From the sequence record PQ671644.1: a stretch of DNA of 64,000 nt, one strand, 5' to 3'. Each line of letters opens with the position of its first letter. The first letter of the stretch is position 1. Position numbers and translations under genes: made by a program. The stretch comes from Escherichia phage DCP80. The notes below the pieces were generated by a model, which saw only the letters and a program-made list of their open reading frames with translations, was not told the origin of the DNA and did not search any database. Below, piece by piece: positions 50,166-50,916 of the stretch.

Positions 50166-50399
50166 ATGTTAAACTTAATTACAAATGAAAGAGTTACACA
50201 GGCATATGGTGACAGAAATGATGGAATCTATGTCTACAAGGGAGACCGCCGGATTGGTTTCATTACTGACCTGAAGGCCAAATTGTTAAAAGAATTGAAA
50301 GCTCAAACAGGTGATTCTGGGTTTAGAGCAAGAGCCAAAAAGAAAGATGAACGCCTGGGTGCCAACTCTTTTGGTCCTAGAGGTTACAACCGCTACTAA
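50166..50399 (+). CDS. Hypothetical protein, paralogue of the N-terminus of the next gene
   Basis: 77 aa; YGDRNDGIYVYKGDRRIGFITDLKAKL shared with 50413-50916. Confidence 0.5.
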   Translation: MLNLITNERVTQAYGDRNDGIYVYKGDRRIGFITDLKAKLLKELKAQTGDSGFRARAKKKDERLGANSFGPRGYNRY

Positions 50400-50412
50400 T
50401 GAGGAAAATATT

Positions 50413-50916
50413 ATGAATATGCAACTGATTTCAAATGAAATGATTGTTGATGTATATGGTGACCGCCATGACGGAATCTATGTTTATAAAGGTTCCAAAA
50501 ATGTTGGGTTCCTTACTGACTTAAGAAAGAAACTGGCGTCTGATAATAAGTTGAAGGCGAAACAAAAAGAATATCGTGATAAGAAATCAGAAGAGCGGAA
50601 AGAAGCACTGCATGAATCTGTTCCTGAAATGGTTGACTTCTTAAAGAACCATTTGGTTAAATATGATGCAGAAGTGTTCATCAATCAGACCCAACCTAAT
50701 GTGCATATCAATGGATGTGTTTGTTATGTTGTGGTTGAACCCCTGACACTTCAACACCGCCTGGGAATTAAACACCCAGTGTTAACCCAGGATGATATGG
50801 CGGATGAAGTTGGTAATCAGTTCCGCATTTCAGCATCTGACAGTACAAATCACATCCTCCTGAATGGTTTATCCCAGGATGATATTGTTGAGGTAATCAT
50901 CAAGTTATGCAAATAA
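50413..50916 (+). CDS. Hypothetical protein (size and position match T4 alc; sequence not verified)
   Basis: 167 aa from ATG with GAGGAAAA RBS; ORF-track start 50311 is upstream in frame. Confidence 0.5.
   Translation: MNMQLISNEMIVDVYGDRHDGIYVYKGSKNVGFLTDLRKKLASDNKLKAKQKEYRDKKSEERKEALHESVPEMVDFLKNHLVKYDAEVFINQTQPNVHINGCVCYVVVEPLTLQHRLGIKHPVLTQDDMADEVGNQFRISASDSTNHILLNGLSQDDIVEVIIKLCK

Follow-up and report, generated by a model that had tools for sequence, protein, structure and literature searches.

Why should a phage that encodes a complete Alc protein carry, directly in front of that gene, a second and much shorter gene related to the N-terminal portion of that protein? The question is raised by Escherichia phage DCP80 (sequence record PQ671644.1), of which a stretch of 64,000 nucleotides, hereafter the window, was analysed. 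On its plus strand lies an ATG-initiated open reading frame (ORF) at 50166–50399 that encodes 77 amino acids (aa) and is here called alc.b, followed at 50413–50916 by the ATG-initiated gene alc, which encodes 167 aa. Both ORFs had been placed at these coordinates, downstream of rnlA, in a preliminary description made from the letters of the window alone, and both were found there.

Over the region 49900–51000 the identity is 99.7% with Escherichia phage P896 and 99.1% with Shigella phage SP18, a member of the genus Gaprivervirus, and judged by these identities the phage is a T-even-like Gaprivervirus. The gene pair is not new as annotation: SP18 (GenBank GQ981382) carries it as alcb and alca, and phage VR7 as ORF243c and alc. 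The SP18 alcb product (ADO19581), VR7 ORF243c (ADR32618) and the family PHROG 17715 represent the same gene as 50166–50399, with 94–100% protein identity and the same position. The SP18 record describes alcb as 'similar to N-terminal region of ... Alc', and elsewhere the short gene has been named from similarity alone, for instance as 'inhibitor of host transcription', as 'hypothetical protein' or, once, as 'PRC domain-containing protein'. No functional study of alcb or VR7 ORF243c was found in the literature searched, and the papers retrieved on Gaprivervirus and on VR7/alc concern other matters.

Relationship of the short gene to Alc

Based on its match to the Pfam family PF17527 (171.8 bits at a cut-off of 25, residues 1–166 falling on profile positions 1–176 of 177), its match to phrog_1253 (expect value, E, 8.6e-75) and its 57% identity with T4 Alc (gene alc/unf), counted across 166 of the 167 residues (E 1e-70, the two proteins being of equal length), the product of 50413–50916 is a full-length Alc and the orthologue of T4 alc, as the preliminary description had proposed; in both phages the gene lies between rnlA and pseT.3. 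T4 Alc is reported to stop Escherichia coli RNA polymerase on cytosine DNA and not on modified DNA, in a manner that depends on the beta subunit of the polymerase (Kashlev 1993 and Severinov 1994, as cited in later papers). By analogy, the Gaprivervirus Alc should also halt the host polymerase on unmodified cytosine DNA. A mechanical ORF list extends the Alc frame to a GTG at 50311, which would give 201 aa; we take the ATG at 50413 as the start because it is preceded by GAGGA at 50401–50405 and the protein beginning there aligns end to end with T4 Alc. In several GenBank and metagenome records (P0003, P0004, CJ20_102, P8 ORF267) Alc has been called at 188–201 aa, overlapping alc.b, since the frame is open upstream through 50311–50412, and these N-terminal extensions look like annotation artefacts.

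The 77-aa protein shares 29 of 62 residues (47%, BLASTP E 7e-18) with residues 3–62 of the neighbouring Alc and is 55% identical to residues 3–57 of T4 Alc. The strongest block of similarity, residues 1–38, contains the YGDR(N/H)DGIYVYKG motif. The common N-terminal domain proposed earlier is thus real, and only its length, given as about 35 aa, has to be revised, as the similarity reaches residue ~62. Against PF17527 the short protein scored 41.5 bits, likewise above the cut-off of 25, on profile positions 3–62 of 177 only, while it fitted its own family, phrog_17715, along all 77 positions (residues 1–77 on positions 1–77, E 1.6e-53). Because the match covers the N-terminal module (N-module) and the full architecture is missing, alc.b is a partial, N-domain-only paralogue, as had been suggested, and not an Alc. 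In comparison with T4 Alc it lacks the equivalent of residues ~64–167, that is, most of a linker helix and the entire C-terminal domain, and it carries instead a basic G-x-NSFGP tail that is present in no Alc. Across lineages this tail follows the pattern G-F-x-x-(K/R)...R-(L/H)-G-x-N-S-F-G-P-x-G-x-N-(K/R)-(F/Y)-stop, the version in the window being G-A-N-S-F-G-P. The isoelectric point (pI) is 10.05 for the whole protein and 10.5–11.6 for the tail, and the C-terminal domain of Alc is acidic. Within the N-module, I6, G16, D20, G21, I22 and G32 were invariant in 25 Alc and alc.b sequences, and they remained so when metagenomic short forms were added, except for G21, which is E in one of them (contig L006).

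The AlphaFold2 (AF2) model of Alc, with a predicted local distance difference test (pLDDT) score of 92.4, consists of a helix at residues 8–15, a β-hairpin at 23–33, a long helix at 34–84 whose middle stretch (48–65) is almost wholly charged, and an alpha/beta domain at 87–166. As modelled, the protein would therefore have three parts, an N-module (residues 1–47) and a C-terminal domain with a charged linker helix between them. The best matches of the model among solved structures were to the C-terminal double-wing DNA-binding domain of MotA (PDB 1kaf, 5jlt), so that the C-terminal domain of Alc looks like a domain of this type and is a putative DNA reader. The structural scores are modest, however, and there is no sequence similarity between the two, ALC being the only Pfam family found at E up to 1. 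The likeness to MotA belongs to Alc and not to alc.b, whose model reached a pLDDT of ~90 at residues 11–40 and fell below 50 in the tail. The short protein is thus probably made of an N-module of ~47 residues (a helix, a β-hairpin and the start of the long helix, with a short helix modelled after it) followed by a basic, probably disordered tail.

Searches for other relatives were negative. A sequence search of the PDB found no relative of Alc, the sole match being a primase at E 0.55, and neither protein had a match in NCBIfam at E up to 10. No domain map or structure of Alc was found in the searchable literature, which does not reach the older primary papers; T4 Alc made in E. coli was insoluble (PMC8076793). 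The PRC-barrel label given to the short gene of phage EAWsc9 (contig L012, 568–801) was rejected: ALC was again the only Pfam family at E up to 1, NCBIfam was empty, and a Foldseek search of the PDB with the alc.b model returned zero matches with E ≤0.001.

Conservation and selection

A tblastn search of 50,697 phage records recovered the full-length short gene in 34 of them and only the N-termini of Alc elsewhere. The gene was intact in all 34, and those records that were fetched and carry a genus assignment all belong to Gaprivervirus. A gene of 77–78 aa also stands between rnlA and alc in three metagenomic contigs (L005, L006 and L010) whose Alc is 78–79% identical to that of the window, and these orthologues retain the length and the tail motif. 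The lineage of contigs L007–L009, with Alc 64% identical, has no short gene. In a word-indexed search of 5.8 billion proteins, alc.b retrieved two clusters only, both from Gaprivervirus, and an exhaustive phmmer search of 1.84 billion representatives yielded no relatives other than short forms already known, Alcs of full length and a single T4-type Alc truncated to 63 aa (P0038). The N-module was not found fused to any other domain in that search; it was seen in Alc and alc.b only. Five long repeat proteins among the phmmer matches (P0034–36, P0039, P0040) were set aside as compositional noise, since the four that were scanned (P0034, P0035, P0039, P0040) hit a wide range of unrelated Pfam families, hardly any single stretch being significant by itself.

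Among 11 Gaprivervirus genomes the ratio of non-synonymous to synonymous substitution rates (dN/dS) was 0.10 for alc.b, close to the 0.105 of Alc. Within alc.b it was lowest in the tail, at 0.034, and for the C-terminal part of Alc it was 0.032. Changes in alc.b within the genus comprised 14 synonymous and 6 non-synonymous ones (P 7.6e-6 against neutrality), of which the part that does not resemble Alc accounted for 10 and 2, respectively. In comparison with L005 and L010 synonymous sites were saturated (proportion of synonymous differences, pS, 0.72–0.75), yet the length, the core of the N-module and the tail motif were kept.

These patterns bear directly on the idea, raised in the preliminary description, that the short gene is a remnant of duplication, which would make it a non-functional sequence reported by gene callers. 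Its brevity and its coverage of only part of the parental gene would fit a remnant, as would a metagenomic variant with a frameshifted C-terminus. A remnant is, however, hardly to be expected intact in 34 records and three divergent lineages, at constant length and with its own Shine-Dalgarno (SD) sequence and start codon, let alone with the dN/dS and the excess of synonymous changes given above, and we regard this explanation as scarcely credible. As judged from these substitutions, alc.b is a conserved gene under purifying selection and not a decaying remnant. Since both similarity to Alc and conservation of the short paralogue were found, the earlier observation of the pair stands.

The frameshifted variant, P0002, comes from an ENA contig; it is 75 aa long, and its C-terminus, changed by the frameshift, extends into the region of the alc start. 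P0002 and the truncated P0038 are known from one sequence each and may stem from sequencing errors or represent natural mutants of alc.

Within Alc itself we noted a patch at 50440–50570 (codons ~10–52) that occurs as two haplotypes in the genus, with up to 30% nucleotide divergence and 9 amino-acid differences between them, in flanks that diverge by 0–5%. With a pS as high as 0.33, the patch is better explained by import of an allele than by positive selection. Gene conversion from alc.b into the N-module of Alc was rejected as the source of the haplotypes, because at the sites where they differ alc.b fits haplotype A six times, haplotype B six times and neither twelve times.

Origin of the gene pair

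The simplest history for alc.b, as reconstructed from the sequences, is a tandem duplication of a 5′ segment of an ancestral alc gene, which would have extended from the SD sequence to about codon 63–77. The motif (A)TGAGGA precedes alc.b, the alc of the window, and alc in T4 and L007. In the window the SD sequence of alc, GAGGA at 50401–50405 on the plus strand, lies 2 nt past the TAA stop of alc.b (50397–50399), and an in-frame TGA at 50400–50402 overlaps this SD region. In L005 and L010 the stop of alc.b is itself the TGA within TGAGGA, and in the window the TAA stands directly before the SD. The upstream copy would thus have ended at a stop in or beside the duplicated SD and become a separate 77-aa protein composed of the Alc N-module and a new basic, disordered tail, with the downstream copy remaining an ordinary Alc. 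The upstream copy would also have kept the ancestral promoter and leader, because an alignment of the sequence ahead of alc.b with the T4 alc leader brings into register the -35 GT(T/G)TAC, the -10 hexamer, the 17 nt between them and the SD.

The duplication is taken to be old, because the N-module of alc.b resembles its own Alc no more than it does the Alcs of other genera. Nucleotide similarity between alc.b and alc is gone beyond codon 39. We also considered whether the tail of alc.b arose from Alc codons 64–77 by a shift of reading frame and rejected this, the nucleotide identity being 28–33% and no like peptide being found in other frames.

Expression signals

Immediately past the rnlA stop, a G+C-rich, terminator-like hairpin (50100–50119, plus strand) was found with a 7-bp stem, 4 G-C pairs and a weak T tail, CTTTCT. 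It is overlapped by a promoter-like element of the sigma-70 or T4-early type, (G)TGTACA - 17 nt - CATAAT, at 50106–50134 on the same strand (9 of 12 matches in a scan). The element aligns column for column with GTTTACA-17-TATAGT ahead of T4 alc, and the aligned equivalents in L005, L010 and L007 read GTTTAC(A/T)-17-TAGTAT, CATAAT and TATGAT, respectively.

The hairpin at 50100–50119 is also the first hairpin of a predicted leader fold, which over a 90-nt stretch including it has a folding energy of -22 kcal/mol (z-score -3.2). A second predicted hairpin (50128–50169, plus strand) pairs the -10 region with the SD GAGGA (50154–50158) and the AUG of alc.b. Leaders with equivalent hairpins are predicted in L005 (3719–3758, leader z -5.3), in L010 (1012–1049, z -5.4), ahead of T4 alc (L017, the T4T record, 839–897, z -4.7) and in L007 (~2027–2086, z -2.6). 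In every lineage examined, T4 included, the -10 region is thus predicted to pair with the SD and the start codon, with stem sequences that differ from lineage to lineage; a consensus fold derived from the alignment is weak, with compensatory changes in 3 of its 10 pairs.

In T4 genes e, soc, 49 and I-TevI, a hairpin of this kind hides the ribosome-binding site in read-through transcripts, and a promoter inside the hairpin yields transcripts in which the site is open. The leaders of the window, L005, L010, T4 alc and L007 resemble these in that the 5′ arm contains the -10 element and the 3′ arm the SD and AUG, as predicted by folding. They differ in that the promoter-like element is of the early, sigma-70 type and not the late type. 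A similar control of alc.b translation may be envisaged, with transcripts begun at the element itself being the translated ones.

The arrangement described makes alc.b and alc probably a two-gene early operon in which the genes would be co-transcribed. As the stop of alc.b overlaps or abuts the SD of alc in all three lineages compared (those of the window, L005 and L010), one could suppose that alc.b is a cis-acting upstream ORF, of which only the act of translation matters, by coupling to or unmasking the ribosome-binding site of alc, the peptide having no role. We consider this highly improbable: purifying selection acts on the amino acids along the whole of alc.b, its length and motif are conserved, and around the start of alc there is no stable RNA structure that would have to be unmasked (z 0.0).

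Possible roles of alc.b

What, then, would the peptide do? Our tentative answer, which we hold to be possible and not yet probable, is that alc.b is a co-expressed accessory factor that docks where the N-module of Alc docks, beside or against Alc. Its retention of the residues that never vary among Alc N-modules suggests that it would bind the same partner as that module, presumably host RNA polymerase or else Alc. The protein lacks the putative DNA-reading domain and would bring a different, conserved peptide tail to the docking site, and it is this combination that leads us to propose an accessory factor that acts where Alc acts. Produced simultaneously with Alc, it would either compete with or complement it.

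Several considerations weigh against this proposal. What points to a promoter and a terminator is agreement with consensus sequences, and the region contains such matches no more often than shuffled sequences do. At the protein level alc.b has changed about three times faster than Alc (dN 0.48–0.62 vs 0.15–0.18). The invariant residues of the N-module are mostly Gly, Asp and Ile in turns, and may have been kept for folding and not as a shared surface. No experiment or structure bearing on the binding partner of the Alc N-module was found in the searchable literature. Finally, the alleles of alc.b do not co-vary with the two haplotypes of the Alc N-module (SP18 and CJ20 have the same alc.b protein and different Alc haplotypes), which argues, if weakly, against tight contact between alc.b and Alc.

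This last observation also counts against another possibility, namely that alc.b is a subunit of Alc, the N-modules oligomerising so that an alc.b–Alc heteromer would have a shifted valency or specificity. The two proteins do have the N-module in common, their genes are adjacent, and the stop of alc.b abutting the SD of alc permits coupled translation, as in many complexes. Most phages with Alc, and the related lineage L007, nevertheless manage without alc.b, and a role as an Alc subunit seems to us unlikely.

Rather more plausible, but in our view still less likely than an accessory factor, is a pure decoy, or dominant-negative, role, which the preliminary description had also raised and with which the anatomy of the protein agrees, in which alc.b would occupy the docking site of the Alc N-module and so damp or time the activity of Alc, for example sparing phage transcription. 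Short paralogues or isoforms that retain only a targeting domain can interfere with the larger protein, as InsA does with InsAB' of IS1 and as plant microProteins do. Like these, alc.b is a docking module without the effector domain, encoded beside the full-length gene; in contrast to them it has an additional, conserved tail, superfluous in a simple competitor, and interference by alc.b is hypothetical. It consists of the N-module with all family-invariant residues and no C-terminal domain, and it would be expressed from the same putative operon, upstream of alc. Moreover, the genus is reported in two genome surveys to lack a recognisable deoxycytidine monophosphate (dCMP) hydroxymethylase (PMC12115623, PMC8056088), so its DNA may be less shielded from Alc. 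For a decoy, however, the N-module alone would suffice, yet it is the non-Alc tail that is the most constrained part within the genus and that keeps a specific motif across lineages in spite of the saturation of synonymous sites. Nor is the phage apparently losing Alc activity, because Alc remains under strong constraint, with a dN/dS of 0.032 in its C-terminal part. These features of the tail and of Alc are what lead us to prefer, tentatively, the accessory factor over the decoy.

Genomic context

The gene order in the window, nrdB - denA - rnlA - alc.b - alc - pseT.3, matches that of T4 save for the extra short gene. The upstream neighbour, rnlA (48959–50095, plus strand), which anchors the synteny with T4, encodes RNA ligase 1, in line with the name used in the preliminary description: its product matched the Pfam families T4_Rnl1_C (142.9 bits) and RNA_lig_T4_1 (83.8 bits) and phrog_562 (E 2.3e-137), and the gene is likewise named in the SP18 record. 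Runs of N (masked bases) at 50945–51002 break pseT.3 just downstream of alc, and others lie at ~47540–47590; alc.b and alc are unaffected. SP18 has a second tandem pair named in the a/b style, soca and socb, for the small outer capsid protein (SP18 14591–15056; L018 2592–3057). A few kb downstream of alc it also carries a gene for a putative intron-like or homing DNA endonuclease (SP18 135411–136136; L001 5952–6677); this gene lies on the opposite strand and overlaps the 3′ end of pseT.

According to the two surveys, Gaprivervirus phages have no recognisable dCMP hydroxymethylase (gene 42) and yet retain alc, denA, denB and dCTPase, and an unknown DNA modification has been inferred for the genus (PMC12115623, PMC8056088). 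T4 has b-gt and gene 42 between uvsX and imm, and SP18 has neither; its uvsX–imm slot (L018 11131–11788; T4T counterpart L019 3420–5206) holds a 176-aa protein without a thymidylate-synthase domain. A tblastn search with T4 gp42 found no match in the window and SP18 12–85 kb (~130 kb in all, with SP18 85–125 kb excluded and no positive control).

It is tempting to tie the reported absence of gene 42 to alc.b, and this is speculation. In such a scenario alc.b would retune the shutoff of host transcription by Alc in a lineage with changed DNA chemistry, its tail altering where or when Alc acts on RNA polymerase and so sparing a phage genome with a differing cytosine state. We consider this improbable, though somewhat less so than a gene whose peptide has no role.

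Significance

Alc, a classic among phage proteins, still awaits an explanation of how it works. Beyond its use for such questions, the practical value of the pair is small, as it is already in databases and occurs in a single genus plus a few uncultured relatives, and nothing in the analysis points to an unusual activity. A concrete hypothesis open to testing is offered by the model of Alc, in which a charged linker joins the N-module to a MotA-like double-wing domain. An N-module-only protein maintained by selection is a ready reagent for asking what the partner of the N-module is and whether docking can be separated from DNA sensing. Should alc.b indeed retune the shutoff, it would be the first natural modulator of Alc and would help in working out where on the polymerase Alc sits. 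Its main use would thus be as a natural tool for dissecting Alc.
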